Assembly: GCA_903902895.1 (NCBI GenBank)
Contig: CAIUWO010000484.1
Location: 1 to 26,075 of the forward strand
Reading direction: 5' to 3'
DNA: 26,075 bases
Origin: Candidatus Hydrogenedentota bacterium
GTDB taxonomy: Bacteria > Hydrogenedentota > Hydrogenedentia > Hydrogenedentales > CAITNO01
In this document: positions 7,845 to 26,075 of the stretch, piece by piece
Layout of the letters: the number at the start of each line of letters is the position of its first letter
Numbering within the stretch: position 1 is the first letter of the stretch
The notes under the pieces: generated by a model
Told to the model about the DNA's origin: nothing
The model's database searches: none
What the model saw: the letters and a program-made list of their open reading frames with translations, nothing else
Made by a program: the position numbers and the translations under genes

Positions 7845-8252
7845 CTATTTGTTTACACGCGAATGCAAAGATCCCCGCCGCCCAAGTTGCCCAGGCGGGT
7901 GTCCACCCAAAAGGTAGACTTTCACGGGAATCAGTCCGTCACTTTCATGTAACTCGTGGATCGCCGCGTGGGACAGGTCAATCACACGTCCCGCCACATA
8001 GGGTCCACGGTCGTTGAGCTTGCAGACTACCGCGCGGCCATTGGGGGCAACGACGAGGTAGTAATCGCCGAACTTTCCGCGGCGCATGGCGCAGGTGAAT
8101 CCCTCATCCCGCAGCGGGTCGCCGGAAGCGGTGATGGAACTGCTCTCGCGTGTCGTGTAATACGAGGCTATGCCTTCGGCAACAGGCTGAATAGGCTGCG
8201 AGGAAAGCAGTACCAGCACCACAAATTCAAACATTCCGCATGGTGTCCTCAT
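7845..8252 (-). CDS. RlpA-like double-psi beta-barrel (DPBB) protein, secreted
   Basis: Signal peptide (MFEFVVLVLLSSQPIQPVAEG), then the RlpA/DPBB signature GIASYY...TASGDPL...FTCAMRRGKFGDYYLVVAPNGRAVVCKLNDRGPYVAGRVIDLSHAAIHEL. ATG at 8252 is preceded by AGGAGG. Confidence 0.65.
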   Translation of the reverse strand: MRTPCGMFEFVVLVLLSSQPIQPVAEGIASYYTTRESSSITASGDPLRDEGFTCAMRRGKFGDYYLVVAPNGRAVVCKLNDRGPYVAGRVIDLSHAAIHELHESDGLIPVKVYLLGGHPPGQLGRRGSLHSRVNK

Positions 8253-8551: not shown

Positions 8552-8569
8552 AGCAAGATATGCGCCAAA
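8552..8569 (-). promoter_or_regulatory. sigma54 (-24/-12) promoter facing the RlpA-like gene
   Basis: The minus strand reads TTGGCGC-ATATC-TTGCT, i.e. TGGCGC-N5-TTGCT, with the GG and GC dinucleotides 12 nt apart exactly as in the consensus TGGCAC-N5-TTGCW. The predicted TSS is ~8541. Confidence 0.5.
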
Positions 8570-11744: not shown

Positions 11745-12476
11745 TCACCGAAACACCCCTTTTACCGGCTGCACAAGGTTGTATGGCGGCCAGGGGCCGC
11801 TCAGCAGCATCTTGGCAGACTCGTTGCGGTCCAGCATCTCAAACGCGCTGCGGAATGACTCAATACAAGAGCGCCTCACCAAGAAATGGAGTGACAGTAC
11901 GGGCATGCGGCAGGGGCCGCTGGGAAGCGGGGCATACTCGGACACGTGCCGCACAAACAAGCCCCGAAACACGGCGACCGCCCGTTCGCCAAGGGCGTCC
12001 GCCGTTTTGGCCGAGAGGGTCTGGCGGGCGTAAAGCGCCTTTCGCGAGGCAAGGTATTGTTTTCCGCCCGAGACGTCCGGAGAATCGCAGCAGGGGGGGG
12101 GCGTGGATGCGGTGCCGGGGTCTCCGTCCAGGATCGCCCGGATGCTCATCTCCACACATCCCTCCACGCCATCAAGGGCGCTCGCGAATTCCGCGCCCCG
12201 CTCTCTCAAGAGCTCCGCAACCCGTTCCGCGTTGGGCACCAGACAGCCGTAGCGCATGGGAAGCACGGTGCGCACCGCATGCAGGCTTTCAATGACGGCT
12301 GCGAATGCCTGCAACCGGCCCACGGTGGGCGCAATGTCCTCCTCCGGGATTTGTGAGACTGCGGCAAGAAGCCCCTGCTCGGCCAGGGCGGAAACGCGAC
12401 GTCCGCACCCGTCCAGGGGCAGTTCTGCGGGTGCTTTGGGGTCCTCGCGCATGATGCAATAAACAAGGTGGCTCAT
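11745..12476 (-). CDS. gas vesicle protein, GvpF/GvpL family
   Basis: Starts YCIMRED...; the C-terminus carries the family hallmark LLSGPWPPYNLV. Its ATG overlaps the stop of the upstream paralog (ATGA at 12473-12476). Confidence 0.8.
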   Translation of the reverse strand: MSHLVYCIMREDPKAPAELPLDGCGRRVSALAEQGLLAAVSQIPEEDIAPTVGRLQAFAAVIESLHAVRTVLPMRYGCLVPNAERVAELLRERGAEFASALDGVEGCVEMSIRAILDGDPGTASTPPPCCDSPDVSGGKQYLASRKALYARQTLSAKTADALGERAVAVFRGLFVRHVSEYAPLPSGPCRMPVLSLHFLVRRSCIESFRSAFEMLDRNESAKMLLSGPWPPYNLVQPVKGVFR

Positions 12477-13303
12477 TGCGGCTCATCCTCGTCGGCGCCG
12501 TTGCCCCCCAACCCGGCGCAGGCATGGTAGGGCGGCCACGGTCCAGTCGCCACCGCCGCGATGCCCTGCCCGGCATATCGCGCGTCAATGTCGTCAATCT
12601 GTTCGCGAAAGGCCCCGACGCGGTCGCGGCCCAGCAGGACGGCGACGTGCAGAATCATGTCCGCATTTCTGCCCGACGCCTTGGCCTCCTGCAGCTTCAG
12701 CGGGAACAAGTCGAGGCTCAGTTCCTCCAACTGGGCCTGAACGCTCTTGGCGAGGGCAAAGCCGCACTGCTTGGATAGCCGCAGCGCGTCCCTGTGAAGC
12801 TGCTTCTCCTGGAGATAACGGGTTCCGGGGGACCCGGACGCGCGCGCGCTTTTCGCCGCAAGAACAGGGTCTTGGGCCATGTGCCACGCTGCCGCCCTTT
12901 CTGCGTCCAGAAAGAGCTTGACGGACCATTCCTCCTTGTCGGAAATGTACTCCAGAAACCCGGCAATCTCTTCCGCGTCCGGGGCCACAAAGTCCATGAG
13001 CGCATCGGTGTTGGCAAACACGGCCCCAAACCGAACGGGCAGCACGGGAAACCCTTTCATCAAAGCCTCGGTGACACGCTCATGCGCACAGGCGCGCGGA
13101 ACGAGCCAAGCCGGGTCGGCCAGTCTGGCTTCCGCGTCGTCGCCGGTGAACTCGTCCAGGGAGACCACGCTATACACGGCGGCCACCTCGCCCACGTCAA
13201 GGACACAGACCGCTGCCTGGTCATCCACGCCCACAAGGCCTGCATTTGCCCGGGCACCGGCTGGCGCAAAGCAATACACGTACACACCTTGGTCTGCCAT
13301 CAT
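12473..13303 (-). CDS. gas vesicle protein, GvpL/GvpF family (second paralog)
   Basis: The track ORF is 12473..13486. I place the start at MMADQGVYVYCF (ATG ending 13303). It overlaps the Cdc48-like stop as TAATGATG and is preceded by AGGAAAA. The C-terminus reads ATGPWPPYHAC. The 61 upstream codons are Arg/Gly/Pro-rich read-through. Confidence 0.75.
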   Translation of the reverse strand: MMADQGVYVYCFAPAGARANAGLVGVDDQAAVCVLDVGEVAAVYSVVSLDEFTGDDAEARLADPAWLVPRACAHERVTEALMKGFPVLPVRFGAVFANTDALMDFVAPDAEEIAGFLEYISDKEEWSVKLFLDAERAAAWHMAQDPVLAAKSARASGSPGTRYLQEKQLHRDALRLSKQCGFALAKSVQAQLEELSLDLFPLKLQEAKASGRNADMILHVAVLLGRDRVGAFREQIDDIDARYAGQGIAAVATGPWPPYHACAGLGGNGADEDEPQ

Positions 13304-15474
13304 TATTTTCCTGATTTCAGCGCCCGTGTGGGGCCCGCAGCCCCGGTTCGCCTCGTGCGGATGCCCTCCAGGGCGGCCAGCAGCGCGGCGCGCGTGATTA
13401 GCACCTGCTCCCCCCCGGGGGGTGGGCTGTCCGGTCCGCGTTTCGCCAGCGTCTCCCGGATGGCCCCGATGGCGGCGCTTTTGCATGCGGCCTGAACCTC
13501 TGCCCCTGTGAAGCCGTCCGAGGCGGCCGCCAGTTCCTCGGTGCTCACGTCCTCCGCCACGGGTTTCTTGCGAAGGCCTATGTCGAAGATTTCCCGCCGT
13601 TCTTCCTGGCTGGGCGGCATGATCTCGATCAGAACGTCGAAACGGCCGGGCCGCAGCAGTGCGGGATCGAGCGCATCGAGACGGTTCGTCGCCGCCAGCA
13701 CGACGACACCCGTCAGTTCCTCCACGCCGTCCACCTCGGTCAGAAACTGGCTGACGACGCGCTCCGTGACGTGGGCGTCGGTGCCACCCGAACCGCGCAC
13801 CGGCACCAGGCCGTCAATCTCGTCGAAAAACACAATGCACGGCGCGGCCTGCTTTGCCTTGCGAAAGATTTCGCGCACGGCCTTTTCGGACTCGCCCACG
13901 TATTTCGACAGGAGCGACGGACCTTTAACCGAAATGAAGTTCACCTCGGTCTCATTGGCCAGGGCCTTGGCAACCAGCGTCTTCCCGCAGCCGGGGGCGC
14001 CCGAAAGCAGGATGCCCCTCGGGGGCGTGGTGCCCGCCTGCGTGAAGAGTTCGGGATGCCGCAGCGGCCATTCCACCGCCTCCTCAAGCTGCTGTTTCAC
14101 ATGCCGGAGCCCGCCGACATCGGCCCAGCCCACGTCGGGAACCTCCACGAAGACCTCGCGGATGGCGGACGGCTCCACCTCGCGGAGGGCCTCGGTGAAA
14201 TCATGCATGAAGACGCGCAGCTTCATCAGGGACTCATAGGGAATCCGTGCGGCGGCAAAATCAATCTCCGGCATGATTCCCCGCAGACACACCATGGCCG
14301 CCTCCCGGGCGAGAGCCTCCAGGTCAGCGCCCACGAATCCGTGGGTGATTGCCGCAAGCTGGTCAAGGTCCACGTCCTCGGCGAGGGGCATGCCCCGTGT
14401 GTAGATCTCCAGGATTTCCCGCCGTCCGTTGCGGTCGGGAATGGGCACGCAGATTTCCCTGTCAAAGCGGCCGGGCCGCCGCAGCGCGGGGTCAAGCGCG
14501 TTTGGAATGTTCGTTGCGGCAAGGACAATCACATGCTCGCGTTTGGCCAGTCCGTCCATCAGCGCCAACAGTTGCGCCACCACCCGCTTTTCCACCTCGC
14601 CCAGAACCTGGTCGCGCCGCGGGGCGATGGCGTCGATCTCGTCGATGAAGATGATGCTTGGGGCCTTGCGCGCGGCCTCCTCAAAGATCTTGCGCAGGTG
14701 GGCCTCGCTTTCGCCGTAGAATTTGTGCACGATTTCCGGGCCGTTTACGGAGAAGAACGCCGTCTCGGTCTCGTGGGCCACGGCGCGCGCGATCAGGGTT
14801 TTTCCGCAGCCCGGGGGCCCGTACAGCAGCACCCCCTTCGGCGCGGCCACTCCCAGGCGTTCGAAAACTTCCGGATACCGCAGCGGCAGTTCCACAATCT
14901 CCCGAATGCGGTCAATTTCCCGCCGCAGACCGCCAATGTCCTCGTACGAGATCGCGCTGGACTCTTCGCTCTTCTCGGCGCGCCCCACTTCCATCGTCGT
15001 GGTTGAATTGATAACCACGGGGCCTTTGGGCGCGGTGCTGGTCACCTTGAAATCCACGGAACGCGTTCCGAACAGCGTGGCCCGGATACGGTCACCGACC
15101 ACAACCGGCGTGCCGTCGAGGAGACTGCCGATATAGGTCAGGTCCCGGTCGCGCGGGGCCGTCGTCACCGGCACAATGCACACGCGCTGCGCCGGGCTGG
15201 CCGAAATCTTTCGCACTTCAACCATCTGGTCCAGCGCGGTGCCCGCGTTCTCCCGGGACAGTCCGTCAATTTGAACGCGAGACTGGCCGCGCTGTTCCTT
15301 GTAGGCCGGCATGGCCTTGCATACGGTTTCCCGCTTGCCGACGATGGTCACGATATCGCCAATCTCCAGGCCGAGCGCGGCCATGTCTGCGGGGTCCAAC
15401 CGCGCCAGACCGCGGCCGGCATCTTTGCCCGAAGCTTCGCTGACCTTCAACTTCACCGTCTTGGTCGCTGTCAT
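13303..15474 (-). CDS. Cdc48/VCP-like AAA+ ATPase (N-domain plus D1 and D2 AAA modules)
   Basis: A Cdc48-type N-domain (KLKVSEASGKDAGRGLARLDPADMAALGLEIGDIVTIVGKR) is followed by two Walker A motifs (GVLLYGPPGCGKT and GILLSGAPGCGKT), each with Walker B (IIFIDEID and IVFFDEID) and second-region-of-homology arginines. ATG at 15474 is preceded by AGGAAGGA. Confidence 0.85.
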   Translation of the reverse strand: MTATKTVKLKVSEASGKDAGRGLARLDPADMAALGLEIGDIVTIVGKRETVCKAMPAYKEQRGQSRVQIDGLSRENAGTALDQMVEVRKISASPAQRVCIVPVTTAPRDRDLTYIGSLLDGTPVVVGDRIRATLFGTRSVDFKVTSTAPKGPVVINSTTTMEVGRAEKSEESSAISYEDIGGLRREIDRIREIVELPLRYPEVFERLGVAAPKGVLLYGPPGCGKTLIARAVAHETETAFFSVNGPEIVHKFYGESEAHLRKIFEEAARKAPSIIFIDEIDAIAPRRDQVLGEVEKRVVAQLLALMDGLAKREHVIVLAATNIPNALDPALRRPGRFDREICVPIPDRNGRREILEIYTRGMPLAEDVDLDQLAAITHGFVGADLEALAREAAMVCLRGIMPEIDFAAARIPYESLMKLRVFMHDFTEALREVEPSAIREVFVEVPDVGWADVGGLRHVKQQLEEAVEWPLRHPELFTQAGTTPPRGILLSGAPGCGKTLVAKALANETEVNFISVKGPSLLSKYVGESEKAVREIFRKAKQAAPCIVFFDEIDGLVPVRGSGGTDAHVTERVVSQFLTEVDGVEELTGVVVLAATNRLDALDPALLRPGRFDVLIEIMPPSQEERREIFDIGLRKKPVAEDVSTEELAAASDGFTGAEVQAACKSAAIGAIRETLAKRGPDSPPPGGEQVLITRAALLAALEGIRTRRTGAAGPTRALKSGK

Positions 15475-15492: not shown

Positions 15493-16017
15493 CTACGGGG
15501 TCTTGACGAACTTTACCTCTAGCATGCCGTTCCGGCAGTTGTGGCTCATGCTGCTCTCGGGAAATTCGCCCGGCAAAATCACCTCTTTCTGGTACTTCAT
15601 CGCGCCGCGCGCCGCGCTGATGACCAGAATGTCGTGCGCCAACTCGAGGCAAACGTCCTTCTCGTCGACACCGGGCATCTCGGCCACCACCAGGATGTGC
15701 GTCTCTTCATCGAAGATGTCCACGATCGGCTCGCGCACCTCATCGACCACCGGTTTCCCCGTCCCGGCGTCGGGCCGCACGTTTCCGAAGGGTTCCACCT
15801 CGAACTCGTCCTTGCCCAGGCCAACCTTGACGTTGAAGCCATAAATGCCCCGCAGTTTGCCCCCGGGGCCGTGAATCTCGCCGGACTTGCGCAGTTCCTC
15901 CCCTTTCTCAGCGAGCTCACTAAGCTTCTCCATCATGGCGCCCAGACCGCCGAGCAATTTGCCGATCCCGGAAATGCCTTCGCTGTCAGAGTCTTTCTTC
16001 TTTTCATGCTTGGCCAT
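15493..16017 (-). CDS. Hsp20/alpha-crystallin family small heat-shock protein with a ~60-aa low-complexity N-terminal extension
   Basis: The alpha-crystallin domain reads REPIVDIFDEETHILVVAEMPGVDEKDVCLEL...DILVISAARG...YQKEVILPGEF...NGMLEVKF. It lies 12 nt downstream of the activator gene and 18 nt upstream of the Cdc48-like gene. Confidence 0.8.
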   Translation of the reverse strand: MAKHEKKKDSDSEGISGIGKLLGGLGAMMEKLSELAEKGEELRKSGEIHGPGGKLRGIYGFNVKVGLGKDEFEVEPFGNVRPDAGTGKPVVDEVREPIVDIFDEETHILVVAEMPGVDEKDVCLELAHDILVISAARGAMKYQKEVILPGEFPESSMSHNCRNGMLEVKFVKTP

Positions 16018-16029
16018 AGTGATTGCCTT

Positions 16030-17460
16030 TCATGGTTGAGATATCTTATATTCCTTCACCTTGACGTGTATTGTCTTATAGTCCACGCTCAGTATCCGGG
16101 CGGCTTCCGCCTTGTTCCACCGGGCGTGAATCAGAACCTCCGTGATAACCTGCTTCTCGATGTCCGCCACGGTCTTTCTGACCACTTCTTTGAGCGACAC
16201 ATTTCCCGCGATGCAGTCTATTTCTGTGATCTGCTGGACCGTGTTGGAGGCCGCCTTTTCCTTTTTTGGACTAATCGTCATGTTCTCCGGCAGGATGTAT
16301 TTGTCGCACCGCAGTGCCGCCTGCCGAATGACGTTGCGCAGTTCGCGCACGTTGCCCGGCCACTCAAAGGCAAGGAGCAGTTCCACAGCCTCCTGCGAGA
16401 AGCCCAGAATGTCTTTGGTCAATTCCGCCTTGGCGGACATCAGAAAGCGGGTGGCGAGAAATATGATGTCCTCCGGACGGTCACGCAACGGGGGGATGCT
16501 GATGCTGAATTCACTCAGCCGGTAATACAGGTCCTTTCGGAAAAGATTTTTCTGCACCATGGCGCCCAAATCCTCGTTGGCCGCGCCGACCACGCGGATA
16601 TCCACGTCAATGGGCCGGATCCCGCCGACACGCCAAATCTTCCTCTCTTCCAGCGCGCGCAGCAGTTTGGCCTGGAGCGCGAGGGTAAGGTTTGATATCT
16701 CGTCAAGAAAGAGCGTGCCTCCCGAGGCCATTTCCATCTTGCCGGGCTGTGACTGATGCGCGCCGGTATAGGACCCCTTCTCATGCCCAAACAGCTCGCT
16801 CTCTATGAGCGTCGGGGTTATTGAGCCGCAGTCCACAGGCACGAAAGGCCCCTTCGCGCGGTTGCTCAGGCGGTGGAGGCCCTCCACAATCAATTCCTTG
16901 CCGGTGCCCGTTTCACCGGTGATGAGCACGGTGAAGTCCGTGGGGGCCACAAGTTCAACGCTGGCTATCAGGGCGGCGATCTGCCTTCCCGTGCCCATCC
17001 GTTCGGCGAGAGACTCATGGCCCTCAATGCCGTTGGCATGCGAACCCAAGTAGGGGTAGCGCTTCCTGAGCGCCTTTTGCACGGCAACGATGAACCTTTG
17101 AAGGTCAAACGGCTTTAGCAGATAATCATCGGCGCCGCTCTTTATGGCCTGCACAGCCATGTTGATGTCGCCGAAGCCTGTAATCAGGATCACGGGCATG
17201 CCCGGATAGATTTTCTGTATCTGCTTGAAAAGCTCCATCCCGCCCATTCCAGGCATTTTCAAGTCCGTCACCACCACGTTGACCTTCTCGTTCCGAAGCA
17301 CTTCCAGGGCGCCCTCCCCCGTTGTTGCCTCGAGCAGGCCGCACCCCAGATTTTCGATGGCCCGGCATAACAACGCGCGCACATCATCCTCGTCATCCGT
17401 GACGAGCACCCGACCCCATTCCTTGTCCTCTGTCTTCAAAGCATCGAACTCCTTCGCCAT
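16030..17460 (-). CDS. sigma54-dependent Fis-family response regulator (NtrC-type enhancer-binding protein)
   Basis: Receiver domain (VLVTDDEDD...VVVTDLKMPGMGGMEL...KPF). Sigma54-interaction AAA+ domain (VLITGETGTGKELIVEGLH, and ESELFGHEKGSYTGA as a GAFTGA-type loop). C-terminal Fis HTH (NKAEAARILSVDYKTIHVKVKEY). Confidence 0.9.
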   Translation of the reverse strand: MAKEFDALKTEDKEWGRVLVTDDEDDVRALLCRAIENLGCGLLEATTGEGALEVLRNEKVNVVVTDLKMPGMGGMELFKQIQKIYPGMPVILITGFGDINMAVQAIKSGADDYLLKPFDLQRFIVAVQKALRKRYPYLGSHANGIEGHESLAERMGTGRQIAALIASVELVAPTDFTVLITGETGTGKELIVEGLHRLSNRAKGPFVPVDCGSITPTLIESELFGHEKGSYTGAHQSQPGKMEMASGGTLFLDEISNLTLALQAKLLRALEERKIWRVGGIRPIDVDIRVVGAANEDLGAMVQKNLFRKDLYYRLSEFSISIPPLRDRPEDIIFLATRFLMSAKAELTKDILGFSQEAVELLLAFEWPGNVRELRNVIRQAALRCDKYILPENMTISPKKEKAASNTVQQITEIDCIAGNVSLKEVVRKTVADIEKQVITEVLIHARWNKAEAARILSVDYKTIHVKVKEYKISQP

Positions 17461-17654
17461 GATGGACCCACCTGCGGTCCTTTTTTATGTCGCTCGAGGC
17501 GGCCGGAGCAAACACTGTTAATTGGGAAAGGGTCTTTCCAAGCTCTTGAAATGCGTTTTGCCGTAACTAAGGTAAGGCTTCCACTCTGCGGGCCGCGAAC
17601 GGTCAGGCACCCTAAACAAACATAGCTCATATTCGCCCAAACTGGTCGATTATA

Positions 17655-17672
17655 GTTGCATTAGCTTGACCA
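17655..17672 (-). promoter_or_regulatory. weak candidate sigma54-like -24/-12 element upstream of the activator operon
   Basis: The minus strand reads TGGTCA-AGCTA-ATGCA, with GG/GC spacing as in the consensus but degenerate hexamers. It sits in an ~80-bp AT-rich patch that also contains TATAAT, so it could equally be chance. Confidence 0.2.
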
Positions 17673-17946
17673 TAATCACTATTTTAACATATTTGAGTTT
17701 TTTTTTGTGGACCGGGTGGGTCATATGCCCCGCTGTTTCCGCAACGGACCGGAGCGCCAGATGGGGGTCCTGCCGTCTCGTCGCGGGGACGGCAGGGGAA
17801 GAGTCCGCGCGCAAGCCGCCAGTTACGGGCGCCAGGAGCGGTCGGTTCCCCATAGCCTCTTTCCGCGGTATGGGACACACGCCGCTTGGCAGCCCGGACC
17901 GGTTCTGTGTCTAAGCAGCCCGGCCTTTGGCAGAATTGCCGGGGGT

Positions 17947-18282
17947 TCACAAGGCGTGGGCCGCCGGCGTGCTCTTTGCGGCGCCCGACGTCTCGAGTTC
18001 CGCAATGCGCTGTTTCAGTTGTTCGATCTCGTCTTCCCGCTGCGTGGCCGCGGCCTGCGAGTTGAAGTAGGGATTGTTTATCCACCAATCCATGCCCATT
18101 TCACGGGCCTTGTCCACGGAGGCGATCATGAGGCGAATCTGAATGGTGAGCAGTTCAATGTCGACAAGTTTTATCTTGATGTCGCCCGCAATGATCACCC
18201 CCTTGTCCAGTACGCGTTCGAGCACATCGGCGAGCGTCGCGCTTTGGGTGGAGTGCTGCATTGACCGTTGTTGGATAGCCAT
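17947..18282 (-). CDS. gas vesicle protein, GvpA/GvpJ family (GvpJ-like, with a C-terminal coiled-coil tail)
   Basis: Core reads LADVLERVLDKGVIIAGDIKIKLVDIELLTIQIRLMIASVDKAREMG. Start taken at MAIQQRS (ATG ending 18282), preceded by AAAGGA; the track ORF begins 5 codons earlier at a TTG. Confidence 0.75.
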   Translation of the reverse strand: MAIQQRSMQHSTQSATLADVLERVLDKGVIIAGDIKIKLVDIELLTIQIRLMIASVDKAREMGMDWWINNPYFNSQAAATQREDEIEQLKQRIAELETSGAAKSTPAAHAL

Positions 18283-18293
18283 AACGATTCCTT

Positions 18294-18641
18294 TCAAAGA
18301 AGCTTTCCTAGAGGCCCTAGGTCAAGGTTGAGGTCTTCGTCTTCGAGGCCGAACTCAATTTTCAGCCGGTCGATCTCTTCGGCGAGCCGCATGAATGTGG
18401 TCCCCAGCCGTTCCACTTCCTCATCGTTCAGCGACCCGCCCTCCATGCGCCGGAGTGCCTGGCGTTCGAGCAGTTGCCGGACAAGTTCGACAACCGTCAG
18501 AACCAGTTGTCCCAGCCCGTTTTTTACATTTTCCGGGTCAAGCTTAATCCGGGGCCGGCAGGGCTCTGTGGCGGGGGTCATGAGTTGGGCAAAATCGCCC
18601 ATGCACCGGGAATCCGTTTTGACGCTCTGGGTGGTGTTCAT
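18294..18641 (-). CDS. gvpK: gas vesicle protein GvpK
   Basis: GvpK signature: GLGQLVLTVVELVRQLLERQALRRMEGGSLNDEEVERLG...FGLEDEDLNLDLGPLGKLL. Its ATG overlaps the stop of the upstream gvpA-family gene (ATGA at 18638-18641). Confidence 0.8.
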   Translation of the reverse strand: MNTTQSVKTDSRCMGDFAQLMTPATEPCRPRIKLDPENVKNGLGQLVLTVVELVRQLLERQALRRMEGGSLNDEEVERLGTTFMRLAEEIDRLKIEFGLEDEDLNLDLGPLGKLL

Positions 18642-18871
18642 GGCTTGCTCCCGGCCGGACAGGGCCTGTTGGCCGCGTTCTGGGCGCTGATCTCGCGCGC
18701 CGTTTCCACGGAGGACAGCATGACCTGAAGGCTCAGGTACACAAGGTCGATGTCGGCCACCGAAATCACCACCTCTCCCACTATGACAACCCCGGCGTTG
18801 AGGACGCGGTCAAGGGCTTCGCACAAAGAGACATGCTCTTCGGCTTCCATGTCCCGGGCTGACTTGCTCAT
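18638..18871 (-). CDS. gas vesicle protein, GvpA/J/M (PF00741) family, minor paralog
   Basis: Core reads LCEALDRVLNAGVVIVGEVVISVADIDLVYLSLQVMLSSVETAREI. Its ATG overlaps the ArsA-like stop (ATGA at 18868-18871). Confidence 0.75.
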   Translation of the reverse strand: MSKSARDMEAEEHVSLCEALDRVLNAGVVIVGEVVISVADIDLVYLSLQVMLSSVETAREISAQNAANRPCPAGSKP

Positions 18872-20955
18872 GCGGGCCCCCCTCCGGGTTCGGCAGCGCC
18901 GGGACCGCCGCCGCCGCCGCCGTTGTCCTTCGCCGCGGGGTCGGGCGGGTGCGCCGCACGCCGCTTCCGGACCGCGCGCACAATCGGCGGTGCCGGTGCC
19001 TGCGGCCCCTCAAAGAGAAGCAGGCCAAGGGCTTTGAGGTCGTCCCAGTCGGACGGTTCGGCGAAGCGGTATACCACCGATTGCGCGGTCTGGGCGAAGG
19101 CCCGCCTGTATCGGCTCTGCACGCGGGATTCGGCACGGCCGCGGGCGCTGCAGAAAAGACACTCCGCCGGCGGCGTGGCGAGGTTCAAAAAGAGCGTGGG
19201 AACACGTATCCCGGCATTGCGGCACGCGGCCATCAGGTCCGTGGTTTCCTCAAAGGCCATATCCGTCAGCACGCTGACGGCATAGAGGCTGGTCCTTTCC
19301 GGGTCCACCAGCAGCGCGCGCAGGGCTTTGAGTTGCTTGGACATCTCCACCATGAGCTGCATCATGTTGGGCAGCCGGAACACATTTCTGTACTTGATAA
19401 GGATGTTGAAAAACACCCTGAGCCAGTCCTGGACCAGTCCGGGAAGTTCGAGGAGGCGTATGAGGTGCCCGGTGGGGGCCGTGTCGAGGACAATAGTGCC
19501 GTATTTCCCTGACTGGAGCAGTTCCACCACGCGCGTCAACGCCATCATCTCATCCAAGCCCGGAGGGGACATGTCCATGATGCTTTCCATGACCTCTCGG
19601 TCAAAACTTAGGTCGATGGTCACACCTTTGCCCGTAAGAGAACCGAAAAACGCGGCGACTTCATCGCTGTACTGCTGCTTGAGCGCCTCGAACTCCACCT
19701 TCTCATCCACCTCCAACGCCGACAGCCCCGGGCACAATACGGTCTCCCGCGAGCCAACCACCACCCCGAGTCGGTCAGAAAGGGAGTGCGCCGGGTCAGT
19801 GGAGAACAGGAGGATATTCTTGTCCGGCGCTTGCCGGTTCAAACGAAACGCGGTGGCCGTGGCCAGGGTGGTTTTCCCAACCCCCCCTTTTCCCGCAAAA
19901 AGCAACAGTGATGCGCCGATCGGGGGGAGGGTGGCCGCATGGTCAACGCATGGTTTCGTGGCGGTGTCGGCGGCGCGGGGCTGCGGGCCGACCGACAAGG
20001 GCTTAACGGTTTCCCAGAGGGCCCGGAGTTTCTCGCTCCCCTGCACCCTGCCGGCCTGCAGCGGAATTTCCCAGAGGGCGTGCTTGGCGAAGGTCTGCGA
20101 GGCGATGGAGTACTGTTCATATTGGCGGCCGCGCAGTTCGGAACAGAACGGGCACTGTATGGAGACAGGAACGGTCTGGTTGATCAGGATGTCCATGACG
20201 GGAACTCTCATGCTTTGCAGGGCCTCAAGCAGCCGTCCAGTCTCCTGAACGCTCAGTGGCTCGGCAATCATTACCGGCACGAAGCGGCACCTGACGGCGT
20301 CCTGGAGCAGGGCGGTGATGCAGTCGATGGAGGCCATGGTTTGCTCAATGAACATGTCGGCCTGGCTCTTCGTGTAGAATCCGCGGTAGAGTCTGTACAT
20401 GTAGCGGTTCTGGGCCAGCATGGCGTCGAGGGACTGGTTCCATTTTCGCAGCATTTGGGGCAGTTCGAGGAACCGCAGGGCGTGCCCCGTGGGCGCCGTG
20501 TCGACCACAATGCAGGCATAGGCGCCGGAGTCCACGAGCGCGGCGATCTCGATAAAGGCCATTATCTCATCGAGACCCGGCATGGACAGTTCCAGGAGTT
20601 GCGTGATGTCATAGTCGTCGAGAACCGTTCCGTGCAGGGCTATCTCCCGGAGGTGTCCGGCGTGGGCCGCCTTGAACCTGGCCAGACTGTCCTGGGTGTT
20701 GACCTCCAGCACCTCAAGGTTCGGCAGGGGGGCCGAACCCGCGAAGCAGTCTTCGAGTGAGTGTGCCGGGTCGATGGAGACCACAAGAAAGCGGCGGTCC
20801 GGGGACTGGCCGGCCAGCCGCAGTGCGGCTGCGGCGGCACAGGTTGTTTTTCCCACGCCACCTTTCCCGCCAAACAGAATCAGCCCGAGCCCGGCTTCCC
20901 GGAAAAACGAGGGGGCGTCGGTCTGTGCGGGTTGGTTGGCGTTCGGGGCGTTCAA
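18868..20955 (-). CDS. fused tandem ArsA/Get3(TRC40)-like P-loop ATPase (two complete halves in one polypeptide)
   Basis: Half 1 has GGKGGVGKTT, VDTAPTGHALRFLELP and CPFC. Half 2 has AGKGGVGKTT, LDTAPTGHLIRLLELP and CLFC. The only available start is TTG at 20955, preceded by AGGGTG and overlapping the gvpG stop (AATTGA). Confidence 0.85.
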   Translation of the reverse strand: MNAPNANQPAQTDAPSFFREAGLGLILFGGKGGVGKTTCAAAAALRLAGQSPDRRFLVVSIDPAHSLEDCFAGSAPLPNLEVLEVNTQDSLARFKAAHAGHLREIALHGTVLDDYDITQLLELSMPGLDEIMAFIEIAALVDSGAYACIVVDTAPTGHALRFLELPQMLRKWNQSLDAMLAQNRYMYRLYRGFYTKSQADMFIEQTMASIDCITALLQDAVRCRFVPVMIAEPLSVQETGRLLEALQSMRVPVMDILINQTVPVSIQCPFCSELRGRQYEQYSIASQTFAKHALWEIPLQAGRVQGSEKLRALWETVKPLSVGPQPRAADTATKPCVDHAATLPPIGASLLLFAGKGGVGKTTLATATAFRLNRQAPDKNILLFSTDPAHSLSDRLGVVVGSRETVLCPGLSALEVDEKVEFEALKQQYSDEVAAFFGSLTGKGVTIDLSFDREVMESIMDMSPPGLDEMMALTRVVELLQSGKYGTIVLDTAPTGHLIRLLELPGLVQDWLRVFFNILIKYRNVFRLPNMMQLMVEMSKQLKALRALLVDPERTSLYAVSVLTDMAFEETTDLMAACRNAGIRVPTLFLNLATPPAECLFCSARGRAESRVQSRYRRAFAQTAQSVVYRFAEPSDWDDLKALGLLLFEGPQAPAPPIVRAVRKRRAAHPPDPAAKDNGGGGGGPGAAEPGGGPA

Positions 20956-21215
20956 TTGGCACCCTGGCTCTCGTCATCGTCGTCCGTTGACGCAATCTCG
21001 GCCTTGTCGAGCAGTTGCAGGAGCTGCTCCTCCCTGGCATCAAACTCTTCCTCCGTTATCCTCCCCGTTTCAAGCATCATGTACAATTCGGCAAGTTCAA
21101 CGCGGATCGATTCGGCGGCATTTGCGACCTCCTGCTGGGCGGCGTTCTGGATTTCGCGAAAAATGAACATGAGACTCCTCGCCGGAAAAAGCAGGATGTC
21201 ATCGATGATAAACAC
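20952..21215 (-). CDS. gvpG: gas vesicle protein GvpG
   Basis: MFIIDDILLFPARSLMFIFREIQ...ESIRVELAELYMMLETGRITEEEFDAREEQLLQLL matches the GvpG pattern. I prefer the internal GVG start (GTG ending 21215, preceded by GGGGAG) over the track ATG at 21287, which would overlap gvpF by 43 nt and add 24 non-conserved residues. The start is uncertain. Confidence 0.6.
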   Translation of the reverse strand: MFIIDDILLFPARSLMFIFREIQNAAQQEVANAAESIRVELAELYMMLETGRITEEEFDAREEQLLQLLDKAEIASTDDDDESQGAN

Positions 21216-21244
21216 GGCCTGATACTCCCCGGTTGGCCTGCGGG

Positions 21245-22006
21245 CTACATGGACAGTTGCATTTCCACAAAGTTGTACGGCGGCCATGGACCGCTGAAAT
21301 CGAAGGAGAAGGTGTCGTCGAAAAGCTTGGCGGCGTCCATGACGGCGTTTTCGAAGTCCTTCTGTCGGTCGCTCGCCACCAGGCAGGCAAGGCTCAGAAC
21401 ATCACGGTCCTCCCGCGGGTCATTTTCCAGAATCTCAACGCAGCACGGGAGGAGAAACCGTTTCACCGTCTCGGTGTGCTCATCGCGGTCCGTGTTCAGC
21501 GCCTTCTCGAACAAGCGCCCCAACTCGAGCTTGTCACCCTGGGAGGGTTCCCGCCCGCCGCTGAACATGCGGTCCCGAAGCGAGGCGATATTCGGATGTC
21601 TGCTGACAAAGTACTCGAAAAAGTTCGGCACATTCCAGCAGACCCGGAGGCCCATTTCCACGTTTCCCGCAACGCGCTCCAACTGTTCGAGCAACGCGTC
21701 TTGGTTTGCGGACAGCAGCTTGCACACGTCCTTGGTGTTCTTGGCGATATTGCCGAAGGACATGGGCAGCAGGCCGGATTTGCCCATCAAGTGCATCAGG
21801 ACGGCCTGATGGGCGGCCAAATGGCGCCGTTGCGGACGCAGTTTTTCATCGGGAACACCGCTTACCGCGGCAGCCAAAGCGCCCTCAATAACATAGTGCA
21901 CACATCCGCCGTCGATGCCGGAGAGTTCGGCTTCCTCGACCACCTGGTCTGCGGCGACCACTCCGTAAAGGTATGTGCCGCTCGGTGCTGCGATTAGTTG
22001 TTCCAT
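21245..22006 (-). CDS. gvpF: gas vesicle protein GvpF (GvpF/L family), positioned between gvpN and gvpG
   Basis: Begins MEQLIAAPSGTYLYGVV and ends FSGPWPPYNFVEMQLSM (GPWPPYNFV hallmark). ATG at 22006. Confidence 0.8.
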   Translation of the reverse strand: MEQLIAAPSGTYLYGVVAADQVVEEAELSGIDGGCVHYVIEGALAAAVSGVPDEKLRPQRRHLAAHQAVLMHLMGKSGLLPMSFGNIAKNTKDVCKLLSANQDALLEQLERVAGNVEMGLRVCWNVPNFFEYFVSRHPNIASLRDRMFSGGREPSQGDKLELGRLFEKALNTDRDEHTETVKRFLLPCCVEILENDPREDRDVLSLACLVASDRQKDFENAVMDAAKLFDDTFSFDFSGPWPPYNFVEMQLSM

Positions 22007-22103
22007 CTGCCTACGTGCTCCTATTTAGAGCGTGACTGATGAGCACGCCCTGGTTCCTGACAGCCCCGGCAAGCTGTCCGCGCGCCGGCGCTGCGGCGCT
22101 TTC

Positions 22104-22304
22104 CTAGCCTTCTTGGTCGCCGTTTTCAGCGGCGCCCCGCGCCCCGCCCATGGCCCTGGCAAACCGGACTGATTTGATTTGCCCGTCTTCCGTCTTTATT
22201 TCCAGCAGTGTGCTGCAGACAAAACACCGGATCATCCCCTCATAATCGCTGTAAACGTCATCGAGGTCCACGTTGTGTCCGCAGACAAGGCAATTGACTT
22301 TCAT
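22104..22304 (-). CDS. small zinc-ribbon-like protein (two CxxC pairs), 66 aa, unknown function
   Basis: Start taken at internal Met 74 of track ORF 22104..22523 (ATG ending 22304), preceded by AGGAAAGG. Translation: MKVNCLVCGHNVDLDDVYSDYEGMIRCFVCSTLLEIKTEDGQIKSVRFARAMGG..., with C5/C8 and C29/C32. The upstream extension of the track ORF is Arg/Ala/Gly/Pro-rich and looks non-coding. Confidence 0.45.
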   Translation of the reverse strand: MKVNCLVCGHNVDLDDVYSDYEGMIRCFVCSTLLEIKTEDGQIKSVRFARAMGGARGAAENGDQEG

Positions 22305-22600
22305 CAGTGAAGGCCTTTCCTGGTTGCGCCGCTCCGTTCCCGCGGACGGGAGGGTGCGGGTTTGGATGACAATGGCACGGTCAGTCCCGCCCGCCCCCTG
22401 TGTGCGAGGTGCTGCGCGATGAGCCACAGGCGGCGCATCAACCGGCCGGCCAGCGCCGCCTGTCGCAAAACAATGGACACGCTGGCCACATGCGCCATGG
22501 AGACGCCGGTGGAGCTGCGGCACGCCCGGAACCCCTTTATGGTTCCGCCCGTGCGTATTTGGTCGGCAGTCTTGACCATCAACATAAGCGGGGTCCCTTC

Positions 22601-22936
22601 TTAGTATTTTATGCCGAAGCCGGACCCGCTCGCCTTGGGGTGCGGCGCCTCCGGCCTCCTGCGGGGGCCCGCCGGACTGCTGGCGGGCAGATTCTCCCCC
22701 ATCTGGGCCAGGGAGGCGAGCAGGGCCTCCTTTTCGGCGTCGATGGCCTTGAACCGCTCGTCAATGATCCGCACGCGCCTCATGGCCGCCTCCCTTTCCG
22801 AGCCGCGCCGCGCGCGCTCCATTTCAAGGCAGGCGATCTTGATGTAGGCCTTGTGGGGCGGCACTTCCAGGTGCTTGTTCTTCGACAGCGTTTGGACGCA
22901 CTGAAGTCCGCGTGTTGTTCTGTCCGGTATGGCCAT
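22601..22936 (-). CDS. hypothetical basic/coiled-coil protein at the gvpV position of Serratia/cyanobacterial-type clusters
   Basis: ATG at 22936 is preceded by GAGGAGA and lies 11 nt after the gvpN stop. Sequence: ...PPHKAYIKIACLEMERARRGSEREAAMRRVRIIDERFKAIDAEKEALLASLAQ..., with a Pro/Arg-rich tail. The GvpV assignment rests on position only. Confidence 0.5.
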   Translation of the reverse strand: MAIPDRTTRGLQCVQTLSKNKHLEVPPHKAYIKIACLEMERARRGSEREAAMRRVRIIDERFKAIDAEKEALLASLAQMGENLPASSPAGPRRRPEAPHPKASGSGFGIKY

Positions 22937-22947
22937 GGTCTTTCTCC

Positions 22948-24006
22948 TCAGTCGCCGTCGGCCGGGTTCGAGTCATGCTGATGCGCGCGCGCGGGCGCGG
23001 GCTGGCTGCCCAGCCGGACGCACACCCGCTTGAGGATGTCCTCGATGTCGCCGCCCATCACCCGGTTTCCGTCGTGCATGACTTTGGCGGTGTCCGTGTT
23101 CAGGATGTCCCGGCAGATCCGCGGGAAGACGGGGTCGAGCCAGCCGGCGTGCTCGCCGGGCCGCATCAGAAGGCGCCCCACGGCGATGGCCGAGCGAATC
23201 GTGGGCCGGTGCTTGTTTGCGCCGCCCTCGCGCAGCTCGGTCACCAGGTCGACGATGATCTCGGCGTCCTCGCGGCTCGTGCCCGATTTGGCCATGACGA
23301 TCGCAGTCTCGGTGTCCCGGTCGTAGTGGCCAAGGTTGATGGTGATCAGGCGGTCCGCAAGGGCGTCCTGGGTCTTGTGCGTGCCCGCGTACTCTTCCGG
23401 ATTGGAGGTGAAGATGGCGCGAAAGCAGGGATGAACCGCCAGATAGCCCTCGCCCGAGGTGCGCAGCTTCGGCAGGTTCAGGATCCGCTCCGACAGGATG
23501 GTCAGGAACGCGTTGTTGGCCTCGGGCCGCGAGCGGTTGAACTCGTCGTAGATGAGGGTGTCGCCGCGCTGGCAGGCGGTGGTCAGCCGGTTATCCATCC
23601 AGAGGCTTCTCATTTCCTCCTCTGTCTTCATCACGGAGTGGATATAATTGTCGACCACCTTGTGCTTGCGGTAGCCGGTGTCGCGCCCAATCAGGTCGGA
23701 ACTGGCAAACTCGTCATCGCCGTGAATGAGCGTGACGGACCGGCCGAGCAGGGCGGCCGCGTGGAAGGCCAGCGTGGTTTTCCCGGTGCCCGCAGGGCCG
23801 GCGAAATGCACCGGATAACCCGCGTACAGATACGCCATGGCCCGCTCGGTTAGTTCCTGCACATAGTCGGTTGTGACAAACTCCTTGCTTGCCTCAAGCT
23901 GAACGGTGTCGCCGGAACTTCTGATCCGCTCGACCCCCAGGGGTGCCACGGTCGCGTTGTTGTTGCTCATGCTTACCTTCAATCCTTTCTGCATCGGGCC
24001 AGTCAT
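22948..24006 (-). CDS. gvpN: gas vesicle protein GvpN (CbbQ/NirQ/NorQ/GvpN-family AAA+ ATPase)
   Basis: ERAMAYLYAGYPVHFAGPAGTGKTTLAFHAAALLGRSVTLIHG (Walker A), LIYDEFNRSRPEANNAFLTIL (Walker B) and VHPCFRAIFTSNPEEYAGTH match the GvpN family. An alternative start is at Met 13 (ATG ending ~23970), which has a better GAAGG Shine-Dalgarno. Confidence 0.9.
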   Translation of the reverse strand: MTGPMQKGLKVSMSNNNATVAPLGVERIRSSGDTVQLEASKEFVTTDYVQELTERAMAYLYAGYPVHFAGPAGTGKTTLAFHAAALLGRSVTLIHGDDEFASSDLIGRDTGYRKHKVVDNYIHSVMKTEEEMRSLWMDNRLTTACQRGDTLIYDEFNRSRPEANNAFLTILSERILNLPKLRTSGEGYLAVHPCFRAIFTSNPEEYAGTHKTQDALADRLITINLGHYDRDTETAIVMAKSGTSREDAEIIVDLVTELREGGANKHRPTIRSAIAVGRLLMRPGEHAGWLDPVFPRICRDILNTDTAKVMHDGNRVMGGDIEDILKRVCVRLGSQPAPARAHQHDSNPADGD

Positions 24007-24081
24007 GCGCGGCGCATGGCCGGTCCTTGCAAGTGTTTCAGCCTGGACCCTGAACCGGCCCTTCCATTCAGGGACGTTGCC

Positions 24082-24885
24082 TTACTTGCGTCCGCGCCGC
24101 GCCTCGGGCTTGGCGGGCTTGCCGGCCGCTTTGGCCTTGGTCTTTACGGGCGCGGTGTCGGGGGCCTTCGCCTCCGGTCTGGGCGCGCTGACGGCGGGGG
24201 CAGACTGCCTGGTCTCTGCTTTGACGGGCGCGGCGGTGCCAGCCCATGCCTGACGGACCCCGGCGAGGTCGGCGGAGACGGCCTCGCGCAGGGCGTTTAC
24301 GTGCGCGCGCAGTCCGTCGAGAATCTCGGTGCGCGTCGCAAAGTCCTGCGAGGCTTCCTCAATGCGCCGGGCCTCCTCGTCTCGCCGGGAACTGTCGCAT
24401 TCCGCGAAAGTTTCACGCTGCGCCTCGGCCATCTCGTCATGGGCCGCTTGAAACACCACGCGCAGGACATCGACCTCGGCCTTGAGCTCCTCAACCCGCC
24501 CGCAGACCTTGGCTACGAACGCGGCCCGGGCCTGTTGGAGCCTGTCGGCTTCGGCAAGCCTTTCGGCCTCGTTCGCGGCGGACTCATCGCGCACGAGCGC
24601 GGCCCGGTCGGCATGGCCTGTGCGCAATTCGGTCCGAAGTTCCTCGCTCGCCTGGGCGCGCGCCGCATTCCACGTCGCAAGCAATGAGGCGACGGCCTCT
24701 TTCGAACTCTGGGCGAATGCACGCTGCTCTTCCATCAATTCGCGGCGTCCGTTCCGCAATGCGCCAATTTCGTCGCTGAGCCTCGTCATGTCATCGGTAA
24801 GTGTTCCCACAGCTGTTCTCCTCTGGTTATAGACGTTAAAGTGTTCGCCGGTTGACGGACGAAGAGTTTCGCCCGCCAACGTCAT
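24082..24885 (-). CDS. alpha-helical repeat protein at the gvpC position (candidate vesicle-surface protein) with a Lys/Ala/Pro-rich basic tail
   Basis: Start taken at the ATG ending 24885 (the track begins at a TTG two codons earlier). There is an internal duplication: ELMEEQRAFAQSSKEAVASL versus EMAEAQRETFAECDSSRRDE. The C-terminus reads APVKAETRQSAPAVSAPRPEAKAPDTAPVKTKAKAAGKPAKPEARRGRK. It starts 29 nt after the gvpA stop. Confidence 0.6.
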   Translation of the reverse strand: MTLAGETLRPSTGEHFNVYNQRRTAVGTLTDDMTRLSDEIGALRNGRRELMEEQRAFAQSSKEAVASLLATWNAARAQASEELRTELRTGHADRAALVRDESAANEAERLAEADRLQQARAAFVAKVCGRVEELKAEVDVLRVVFQAAHDEMAEAQRETFAECDSSRRDEEARRIEEASQDFATRTEILDGLRAHVNALREAVSADLAGVRQAWAGTAAPVKAETRQSAPAVSAPRPEAKAPDTAPVKTKAKAAGKPAKPEARRGRK

Positions 24886-24914
24886 CTCCAACTCTCAGTT
24901 GCCCTCGCCGGGTC

Positions 24915-25133
24915 TCACGCGGGGGCGGCTGCGGTCGCGGTCAGCCCGATTGCCTCGGCATATTTGAGATAGGTTTCGACAGACGCAATCACCACGCGGG
25001 CTTCCACCGACAACAGTTCTATTCCAACGAGCGAAACCTTGACCCAGGCGTCGATCACAATGCCTTTGTCCAAGATGCGGTCCACGACTTCCGCCAAACT
25101 GGAACTGTCTGTTGATTTCTGTATTTTTGCCAT
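24915..25133 (-). CDS. gvpA: major gas vesicle structural protein GvpA
   Basis: [65 protein letters not shown] is near-identical to canonical GvpA. Start taken at the ATG ending 25133, preceded by AAAGGAG (the track begins at a GTG two codons upstream). Confidence 0.9.
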
Positions 25134-25264
25134 ATCCACTCAACTCCTTTCCGTTTGGAAACCCTCTTTCATGCCGGACTGACGCCTCACGGGCGTCAGC
25201 ACTGCGTGCCGGTGTCCTGACGGCTGGCCCGAAGTGGCCCGGCTCTTGGCGCAACGACTTGGAT

Positions 25265-25283
25265 AAAGCAATACGCATGCCAA
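25265..25283 (-). promoter_or_regulatory. sigma54 (-24/-12) promoter of the gvpA operon
   Basis: The minus strand reads TTGGCATGCGTATTGCTTT, i.e. TGGCAT-N5-TTGCT, with GG and GC 12 nt apart as in the consensus. It is ~120 nt upstream of the gvpA ATG. A sigma54 activator is encoded in the cluster. Confidence 0.55.
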
Positions 25284-25385: not shown

Positions 25386-25446
25386 TTCTATGGATTCTGT
25401 TCCATAGTATGTGGAATAGTTCCCAATTTCCCCGGTTCCACAAGCG
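25386..25446. promoter_or_regulatory. conserved ~60-bp palindromic UAS-like element, copy 2
   Basis: TTCTATGGA-ttctg-TTCCATA-gt-ATGTGGAAT-agtt-CCCAATTTCC-ccGGTTC. It lies 106 bp upstream of the -24 GG of the gvpA sigma54 promoter. Motif order and spacing match the copy at 8670-8730. Confidence 0.5.
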
Positions 25447-25709: not shown

Positions 25710-26075
25710 TCACCGGCTGGGGGGGGTTGAACAAGACTGGCCCAAGCAAGGGCAGTGTTGGACGGGGCACGCTTCCCGCAATTCACGGACCTGCGCATAC
25801 AGCCGGTCTAGCATTTCGGCGCGCGCGACAAAAACCCGCTGGGCCTCGCCGATGCGCTTGGTCTCCACAGCGCGCCTGGCGCTGTCGCAAGTCTCAAGAG
25901 TTTCGCGCTGCGCCGCCGCCATCTCGGCATGCGCGGTGAGCAGGCCCTCGATGCCGGCCCTTATCTCTTCGACGCGCGCACACACTCCCGCGAGAGACCC
26001 CTTGCGCGCGCGGCGCCGCTTCCAGGCCGGGGCGTCCGCGTTTTGGACGGACCCGCACTGCGCCTTCACAAGAGC
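25710..26075 (-). CDS. partial paralog of the 24082..24885 repeat protein; N-terminus beyond the window edge
   Basis: VCARVEEIRAGIEGLLTAHAEMAAAQRETLETCDSARRAVETKRIGEAQRVF aligns with VCGRVEELKAEVDVLRVVFQAAHDEMAEAQRETFAECDSSRRDEEARRIEEASQDF. DNA similarity is visible at 25840-25960 versus 24330-24460. The C-terminus differs (ends CPVQHCPCLGQSCSTPPSR), so it is either diverged or frameshifted. Confidence 0.45.
   Translation of the reverse strand, partial: ALVKAQCGSVQNADAPAWKRRRARKGSLAGVCARVEEIRAGIEGLLTAHAEMAAAQRETLETCDSARRAVETKRIGEAQRVFVARAEMLDRLYAQVRELREACPVQHCPCLGQSCSTPPSR

Follow-up and report, generated by a model that had tools for sequence, protein, structure and literature searches.

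Does the gas-vesicle protein (gvp) gene cluster of a Candidatus Hydrogenedentota bacterium follow a known layout, and do the ArsA-like ATPase gene, the small genes and the apparent gap within it belong to the system? The question was raised by contig CAIUWO010000484.1 of NCBI GenBank assembly GCA_903902895.1 (26,075 nucleotides (nt), analysed at full length and termed the window below), on which an earlier note had described eleven minus-strand genes between positions 17947 and 25133. We found that the region corresponds to the structural operon in a gas-vesicle cluster of the two-operon, proteobacterial type, and that the interval 22305-22600 is a conserved, unnamed protein-coding gene (p93). 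The p93 gene, a zinc-ribbon gene (zn66) and the ArsA-like gene recur in such clusters as optional modules. Clusters of this type, their link with ArsA and the logic of their regulation were known before, and what is added here is modest: two unnamed conserved small-gene families and a conserved sigma-54 promoter.

Layout of the cluster and its relatives

Genes were assigned by a six-frame listing of open reading frames (ORFs) combined with Pfam and NCBIfam profile searches, and all eleven genes proposed earlier proved real, at the positions given for them (Table 1). The core set (gvpA, gvpN, gvpF/L, gvpG, gvpK and two GvpA-related genes of the J/A3 and S/A2 types) scored above the Pfam/NCBIfam cut-offs throughout. 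The second-operon set gvrA, gvpH, gvpZ, gvpF2, gvpF3 and gvrB was also present in the window, in an order kept in ~60 related loci. Related loci were collected as follows: the family of the 111-amino-acid (aa) protein encoded after gvpN was aligned and scanned against one genome per GTDB species, which gave 80 loci, and metagenome loci were added to the set. Hidden Markov models (HMMs) of the small families were run on 83 loci, and module frequencies were counted over the 67 complete loci.

The hosts included Syntrophobacteraceae, Desulfomonile, Desulfobaccales, Phycisphaerae, Acidobacteriota, Anaerolineales, Sumerlaeota, Armatimonadota and Methylococcus, and two cultured gas-vacuolate species were among the 80 loci (Desulforhopalus vacuolatus and Desulfocicer (Desulfobacterium) vacuolatum). 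Comparison of all window proteins with these loci (tblastn) revealed a single architecture, which recurs in ~80 species from several phyla. With optional genes in brackets, the structural operon reads gvpA, GvpC-like gene, gvpN, 111-aa gene, (p93), (zn66), gvpF1, gvpG, (ArsA), gvpS, gvpK, gvpJ, and the regulatory operon of the relatives reads ntrC, gvpH, cdc48, gvpL, gvpF3, kinase, (ntrC). The 111-aa gene stood directly after gvpN in 80/80 genome loci. Among the complete loci, p93 was found in 47/67, zn66 in 56/67 and the ArsA-like gene in 29/67 (~43%), and all three occurred together in 13/67, as they do in the window. On these counts, the window represents one common configuration of a widespread cluster type. 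Its nearest clusters came from Anaerolineales and Phycisphaerae metagenome-assembled genomes, at ~55% mean identity.

The order given in the earlier note, gvpA1-C-N-V-F1-G-W-A2-K-X-A3-Y, is correct for Serratia and is followed by the window, and the additional label 'cyanobacterial-type' was dropped because cyanobacteria arrange these genes otherwise (gvpA..CNJ(X)KFG(V)(W); PMC9501494). In Serratia sp. ATCC 39006, this structural operon comes first and is accompanied by a second, gvrA-gvpH-Z-F2-F3-gvrB-gvrC (Tashiro 2016, PMC4982088); PMC10344784 lists the cluster as CP025084, 259501-276334. Serratia was not among the results of the GvpV-family word search and genome scan, an exact-protein look-up with the ArsA-like sequence had no match, and the ends of the Serratia genes were decoded from the deletion and cloning primers of Table S3 of Tashiro 2016. 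The two-operon layout is shared: A-C-N-V...F1-G-[W position]-A2-K...A3 in the structural operon, then the NtrC-type GvrA, GvpH, an AAA+ protein with a WxDVGG motif at the Z position, F2, F3 and a kinase. In both, the gvpG stop overlaps the start of the next gene, and the gvpN-gvpV spacer is 5 nt in Serratia (from primers) and 11 nt in the window.

Serratia GvpV has the primer-decoded termini M-AISTRP...LRIKY-stop, compared at the termini only with the 111-aa family, whose members start with MAI(S/P).R and finish with GF.(I/L)(K/R)Y-stop, the last Tyr being invariant; the GvpC N-termini are MGC(F/L)TDGM in Serratia and MGTLTDDM in the window. The Serratia gvpZ 3F primer encodes VRWEDVG, an AAA-domain boundary motif, and the window protein has VGWADVGG and ISYEDIGG; on the strength of this primer, Serratia GvpZ is probably the same CDC48-like AAA+ protein. 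The two clusters also differ: gvpX, gvpY and gvrC are absent from the window, where gvpJ begins 11 nt after gvpK (the lack of recognisable X and Y genes had been reported correctly), and the gvpW position is occupied by a 695-aa tandem ArsA/Get3 gene. In Serratia, the gvpV stop is followed by GGAGTGC and the gvpF1 ATG with no gene between them, so p93 and zn66 are extra relative to Serratia.

Two cultured gas-vacuolate hosts, Desulfocicer vacuolatum DSM 3385 (L072) and Desulforhopalus vacuolatus DSM 9700 (L035), have clusters that share the order gvpN, GvpV-like gene, gvpF1, gvpG, ArsA, gvpS, gvpK, gvpJ. The first differs in that the regulatory operon precedes the structural one and both p93 and zn66 are missing; the second carries zn66 and lacks p93. 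Desulfomonile tiedjei has both small genes. The GvpV-like proteins of the two are only ~32-40% identical to that of the window. The D. vacuolatum cluster has yielded gas vesicles in E. coli (PMC10344784).

The true 5' end of the operon lies beyond the window, with more gvpA copies. The earlier note had taken gvpA at 25133 as the first gene; a near-identical 21.4-kb sister contig carries upstream of it three tandem gvpA copies, a gene for a 144-aa GvpC-like paralogue and a 577-nt spacer, and only the last 119 codons of that paralogue (25710-26069) are retained in the window. The 'GvpC-position repeat protein' of the earlier note stands as a gene in that position; its repeat nature is weak, with no BLASTP self-match, no tandem ~33-aa GvpC repeats detected and no match to the GvpC Pfam family (Gas_vesicle_C) at E up to 0.1. 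The protein is A/R/E-rich and helical. Its probable start is preceded by AGGAGA (6 nt before GTG 24810), another gene caller also gave 242 aa, and the N-terminal MGTLTDDM motif after gvpA is conserved in 77 loci. For gvpN, alternative starts lie at 23994 or 23970 (340-348 aa according to gene callers). For gvpG, the PF05120 match begins at residue 32 of the long ORF, the N-terminus MFIIDDILL fits the family, and other callers gave 87 aa.

Table 1. Features of the structural operon, its 5' region and the second operon (window coordinates; aa, amino acids; pI, isoelectric point).
Feature	Positions	Strand	Evidence or remark
GvpC-like paralogue, 3' part	25710..26075	-	48% identity to residues 111-203 of the 24082-24810 protein
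Two perfect 7-bp inverted repeats, CTATGGA/TCCATAG and TGTGGAA/TTCCACA	25388..25442	.	candidate enhancer-binding-protein sites
Sigma-54 -24/-12 promoter TGGCATgcgtaTTGCT	25267..25282	-	1 mismatch; 149 nt upstream of gvpA ATG
gvpA, major shell protein, 72 aa	24915..25133	-	PF00741 3.5e-17; NF006874 134 bits vs cut-off 100
GvpC-like helical protein, likely 242 aa from GTG 24810	24082..24810	-	ORF reaches 24891 (269 aa)
gvpN, MoxR-like AAA+ ATPase	22948..24006	-	TIGR02640 equivalog 322.7 bits vs cut-off 266.8
GvpV-family protein, 111 aa, pI 10.0	22601..22936	-	position after gvpN; termini; family profile
p93, conserved small basic protein, 93 aa, pI 12	22304..22585	-	HMM family; codon-position substitutions; G+C at third codon positions
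zn66, acidic zinc-ribbon protein, 66 aa, C5/C8/C27/C30	22104..22304	-	family with invariant cysteines
gvpF1	21245..22006	-	PF06386 2.5e-63
gvpG, 87 aa from GTG 21215	20952..21215	-	PF05120
Tandem (pseudo-dimeric) ArsA/Get3-family ATPase, 695 aa, TTG start	18868..20955	-	PF02374 twice; TIGR00345
GvpA-family minor protein (GvpS / GvpA2 type)	18638..18871	-	PF00741 3.8e-15
gvpK	18294..18641	-	PF05121 1.3e-35
GvpJ / GvpA3-type, ATG 18282, AAGGAA ribosome-binding site	17947..18282	-	PF00741 8e-17
GvrA-like NtrC-family sigma-54 activator	16030..17460	-	receiver, AAA+, HTH_8 domains
GvpH / Hsp20-like	15493..16017	-	PF05455 5e-5; PF17886; PF00011
CDC48-like double AAA+ ATPase, Serratia gvpZ position	13303..15474	-	PF02359, PF02933, PF00004 twice, PF17862 twice
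gvpL / gvpF2, 276 aa	12473..13303	-	start overlaps CDC48 stop (TAATG)
gvpF3	11745..12476	-	ATGA overlap with gvpL
GvrB-like PAS hybrid histidine kinase	8914..11421	-	Pfam

Some related clusters have extra genes that the window lacks (L002 6716-8077, 4231-4572 and 6301-6702; L003 5890-6255, 7895-8263 and 8275-8631). Among these are zinc-finger proteins of the DnaJ type (CxxCxGxG) and, directly before zn66, a conserved gene of ~118 aa, and in L002 a DDE transposase interrupts the middle of the operon. Within the window, no Rfam family was matched anywhere and terminator-like sites were not enriched (8 vs 9.3 in shuffles).

Overlapping junctions and the ArsA/Get3-like ATPase

Adjacent genes overlap at several junctions: TTGA (gvpG/ArsA), ATGA (ArsA/gvpA-family gene), ATGA (gvpA-family gene/gvpK) and TGATG (p93/zn66) in the structural operon, TAATG (CDC48/gvpL) and ATGA (gvpL/gvpF3) in the second. 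The 1-4 nt overlaps announced by the earlier note are therefore present in the sequence, whereas the stoichiometric coupling it drew from them was not upheld, only the gvpL/gvpF3 overlap being conserved (38/55 relatives). A conserved translational-coupling scheme that sets the GvpG : ArsA : GvpS : GvpK stoichiometry would account for the four overlapping junctions of the structural operon and the two of the next, and Serratia gvpG/gvpW also has an ATGA overlap (primer gvpGR). In the relatives, however, the overlap is rare at gvpG/ArsA (3/32) and at ArsA/gvpS (3/28) and is a minority state at gvpS/gvpK (15/65), start codons being chosen approximately, and we consider such a scheme unlikely. Among gene junctions in compact bacterial operons, the four-base overlap is the type met most often. 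The tight packing is best read as lineage-specific compaction and not as a conserved stoichiometric design, gvpL/gvpF3 excepted.

The ArsA-like gene was always located between gvpG and gvpS, in ~30 loci from Planctomycetota, Acidobacteriota, Chloroflexota and Thermodesulfobacteriota. Its product scored 354.8 bits against TIGR00345 (the Get3/ArsA/TRC40 subfamily; cut-off 135) and did not reach the ArsA equivalog cut-offs (TIGR04291, 166 vs 650; NF041417, 183 vs 800). Both halves keep GKGGVGKT, DPAHS, DTAPTGH and CxxC in 28-30 of the 30 gvp-linked homologues, the CxxC motifs being CPFC at residues 268-271 (30/30) and CLFC at 599-602 (28/30). A CxxC motif marks Get3 rather than ArsA. The closest solved structure was Chlamydomonas ARSA1 (PDB 5zme, E 1.7e-46), which is likewise a fused pseudo-dimer; with Get3/TRC40 and ARSA1 the protein shares the deviant Walker A GKGGVGKT, the DTAPTGH switch II and the CxxC zinc motif. 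It would differ from Get3/TRC40 in its clients, which are presumed to be soluble-phase hydrophobic shell proteins and not tail-anchored membrane proteins. Searches of the literature for Get3 or CDC48 linked to gas vesicles returned nothing relevant.

ArsA homologues within gvp clusters, alongside Hsp20, were reported by Castillo & Saier 2010 (PMC2963123), who proposed that they energise a step of vesicle biogenesis. Their clusters 4 and 6 are alike in kind: two-domain ~640-aa proteins inside gvp clusters with Hsp20 and without ars genes. That survey covered Bacteroidota/Chlorobi, cyanobacteria, one delta-proteobacterium and an acidobacterium; the lineage of the window and the fixed gvpG-ArsA-gvpS position across many phyla are undescribed there. 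The ArsA-like gene is thus neither an unrelated insertion nor new, given its fixed position, the link published in 2010 and the vesicles produced in E. coli from the cluster of a species that carries it. Nor can the earlier claim of two unrelated inserted genes be kept for zn66, whose family was found in 66/83 loci. When the profile searches called for by that note were run, the small ORFs fell into families that are essentially confined to gvp neighbourhoods.

We regard it as very unlikely that the ArsA-like gene and the small ORFs are chance passengers without a vesicle role (an arsenic-resistance ATPase and unrelated genes). Source databases do label the ArsA-like homologues 'arsenite-transporting ATPase', the gene is missing from over half of the related clusters, and D. 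vacuolatum makes vesicles from a cluster without p93 and zn66. Yet the same gvpG-gvpS position in ~30 loci of four phyla, the ArsA equivalog score far below its cut-off, the Get3-type CxxC in both halves and the co-evolution with gvp genes remarked on in PMC2963123 all argue against passengers, and no match to the arsB, acr3, arsR or arsD families was obtained in the ~28 window ORFs scanned.

Serratia GvpW, listed as of 'unknown function', may belong to the same ArsA/Get3 family. The primer gvpK_5F, from the upstream arm of gvpK, encodes GLDEIM, as in the ArsA/Get3 motif PGLDEIM of the window protein; the match is a single hexapeptide with a rough chance estimate of ~0.015 and is offered as a lead only. 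If Serratia GvpW were ArsA-like, results already published for gvpW deletions would hold for this family of genes.

The supposed gap and the small-protein families

The ~296-nt gap reported at 22305-22600 is filled by a 93-aa ORF, p93. Its start lies 15 nt beyond the end of the 111-aa gene, and at its other end it shares 1 nt with the start of zn66 (TGATG). The ORF has already been called by gene callers on near-identical contigs, and a tblastn search with its N-terminal 55 residues gave matches at the corresponding place of two clusters where it is uncalled and where ArsA is only ~57% identical. An HMM iterated over the plus-strand ORFs of the 83 loci found the family in 56/83, always directly downstream of the 111-aa homologue. 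Its members are typically 66-97 aa long (E 1e-13 to 1e-30), with conservation in the N-terminal ~60 residues. In 48 sequence pairs at 70-97% nucleotide identity, differences at codon positions 1/2/3 numbered 344/261/913, and the G+C content at third codon positions (GC3) of the window copy is 0.78, similar to its neighbours. The databases hold 79 predicted members, nearly all 'hypothetical', and one bears the Joint Genome Institute (JGI) label 'ribosomal protein S13'. The fixed position in 56/83 loci, the bias of substitutions to third positions, the GC3 and the 79 database proteins together establish p93 as a real gene.

The suggestion that the interval is a non-coding break, with a promoter or attenuator placed between the gvpA-C-N-V group and the assembly genes, is largely refuted and extremely improbable: the product is Arg-rich and without a Pfam family, spurious ORFs are numerous in high-GC genomes and a 97-nt spacer does occur slightly further on, before gvpF1, but the exact fit of the ORF between its neighbours, its HMM family and its substitution pattern mark it as coding, and searches of the interval for sigma-54 sites (up to 2 mismatches), for minus-strand sigma-70 promoters and terminators and for Rfam families gave no match. 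It is not the 'only break' in the operon either, since true non-coding spacers lie elsewhere (~104 nt from gvpA to GTG 24810, 75-111 nt before gvpN and 97 nt from zn66 to gvpF1). An RNA fold in the gvpA-gvpC spacer was not significant (z = -1.25). On the plasmid pA of Spartinivicinus ruber (L092 13272-13823), a 183-aa gene after a GvpV-like gene gave a weak match to the p93 HMM (E = 6.6e-4), and the family may extend into gamma-proteobacteria in a longer form.

The profile of the 111-aa GvpV-like family matched 632 cluster representatives. The family reaches plasmids of alpha- and gamma-proteobacteria, where its members are annotated 'hypothetical'; within the plasmid collection, the relatives were confined to Methylocella, Methylosinus and Spartinivicinus. 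Family-alignment predictions with AF2 gave one long helix with disordered ends for the GvpV-like protein (residues 27-81) and for p93 (residues 30-66), each with a predicted local distance difference test (pLDDT) score of ~73. Paralogy of p93 and the GvpV-like protein was considered and rejected (hhalign probability 0.5%).

The zn66 family has the consensus MKINCLSCGH..LDDAYDDYEG.vKCyVCG, with an invariant C-x2-C...C-x2-C and the acidic patch LDDAYDDYEG. Its Pfam and PDB matches were generic zinc ribbons at sub-threshold level, and PDB profile searches with the zn66 and GvpV-like families gave nothing better than E 0.2. Basic p93 is accompanied by an acidic zn66 (pI 4.7), and both genes were found in 44/67 complete loci; this co-occurrence and the overlap of the two genes suggest that they work as a pair. 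In three Acidobacteriaceae loci (L017, L047 and L054), the place of zn66 is not before gvpF1 but upstream of gvpN, directly following the GvpC-like gene, and the small gene thus moves within the operon.

Regulation, assembly and implications

A sigma-54 element (up to 2 mismatches, within 300 nt upstream of the first gvpA) was found in 60/69 related loci and in 1/119 coding controls, and the distances listed for the relatives range from 74 to 238 nt. Such a promoter before gvpA fits the adjacent NtrC-type activator. The activator may bind at the two 7-bp inverted repeats of the window, which are located 105-160 nt upstream of this promoter element. The presumed 5' untranslated region of gvpA, from the promoter to the start codon, also contains an imperfect 17-nt inverted repeat (25170-25208, 76% complementary).

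Further signals were noted around the second operon. A perfect TATAAT (17649-17654, minus strand) lies in the only A/T-rich patch (17650-17720) between gvpJ and gvrA and is a candidate sigma-70 promoter of that operon; a 67-76 aa ORF called there by gene callers (17650-17880) belongs to no family and appears non-coding. Past the end of the kinase gene there is a second sigma-54-like element, TGGCGCATATCTTGCT (8552-8567, minus strand, 1 mismatch), and ~300 nt downstream of it a 135-aa DPBB (lytic-transglycosylase-like) ORF begins (7845-8252). The CDC48-like protein combines CDC48_N (a double-psi barrel), CDC48_2 and two AAA domains with lids, and its gene is conserved in ~60 related clusters, adjoining gvpH (Hsp20).

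The mechanism that we propose is as follows. The kinase and the NtrC-type activator would switch on the sigma-54 promoter; GvpA would form the ribbed shell and the GvpC-like protein would stiffen it; the nucleation complex would consist of GvpF, G, J, K, L and S. GvpN with the GvpV-like protein would drive growth from bicone to cylinder, after the genetics of Serratia, in which both proteins have a bicone phenotype and are needed for this transition (PMC4982088). The Get3-like ATPase, with Hsp20 and CDC48, would be a holdase or targeting factor powered by ATP, and its clients would be the GvpA-family or GvpG proteins encoded alongside, which are very hydrophobic. The helical, basic p93 and the acidic zn66 are probably a pair of small assembly adaptors.

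Taken as a whole, a two-operon gas-vesicle cluster of the Serratia / Desulfomonile / Desulfocicer type, working by this mechanism and packed by compaction, is very probably the right explanation. Several points weigh against it. The cluster is known here from genes alone and could be cryptic, and the start-codon choices beneath the overlap statistics are approximate. The GvpV, GvpC and GvpZ equivalences rest on 5-8 primer-decoded residues and position, and the roles given to the ArsA-like ATPase, p93 and zn66 are drawn from neighbourhood, charge and fold only. A gvrC-like second NtrC gene was not found in the window, where the ORFs downstream of the kinase had no relevant Pfam match; a kinase followed by ntrC occurs in Serratia and roughly half of the related loci, and the kinase of the window has its own C-terminal receiver domain. 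Finally, D. vacuolatum dispenses with p93 and zn66, which are therefore not generally required.

A more specific proposal is that the GvpV-like protein, p93 and zn66 would be client adaptors for GvpN, the CDC48-like GvpZ and the Get3-like pseudo-dimer, and that the Get3-like enzyme would use the chemistry of tail-anchor targeting to shield GvpA-family or GvpG proteins and deliver them to the gas-water interface instead of a membrane. We put this forward tentatively and think it rather improbable in this full form. If it were true, Serratia GvpW could be the same kind of ATPase. GvpW is known to matter for heterologous vesicle yield in the Serratia system.

Gas-vesicle clusters are being developed into acoustic reporter genes, and in E. 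coli the majority of natural clusters do not work. The recurrent accessory genes (p93, zn66 and the optional Get3-like ATPase) are candidates for better heterologous assembly. For annotation, the lesson is that an apparent gap was a missed gene: the p93 and zn66 families are 'hypothetical' in NCBI annotation and are often skipped by gene callers. The same accessory genes are candidates to explain how extremely hydrophobic shell proteins are handled before assembly.

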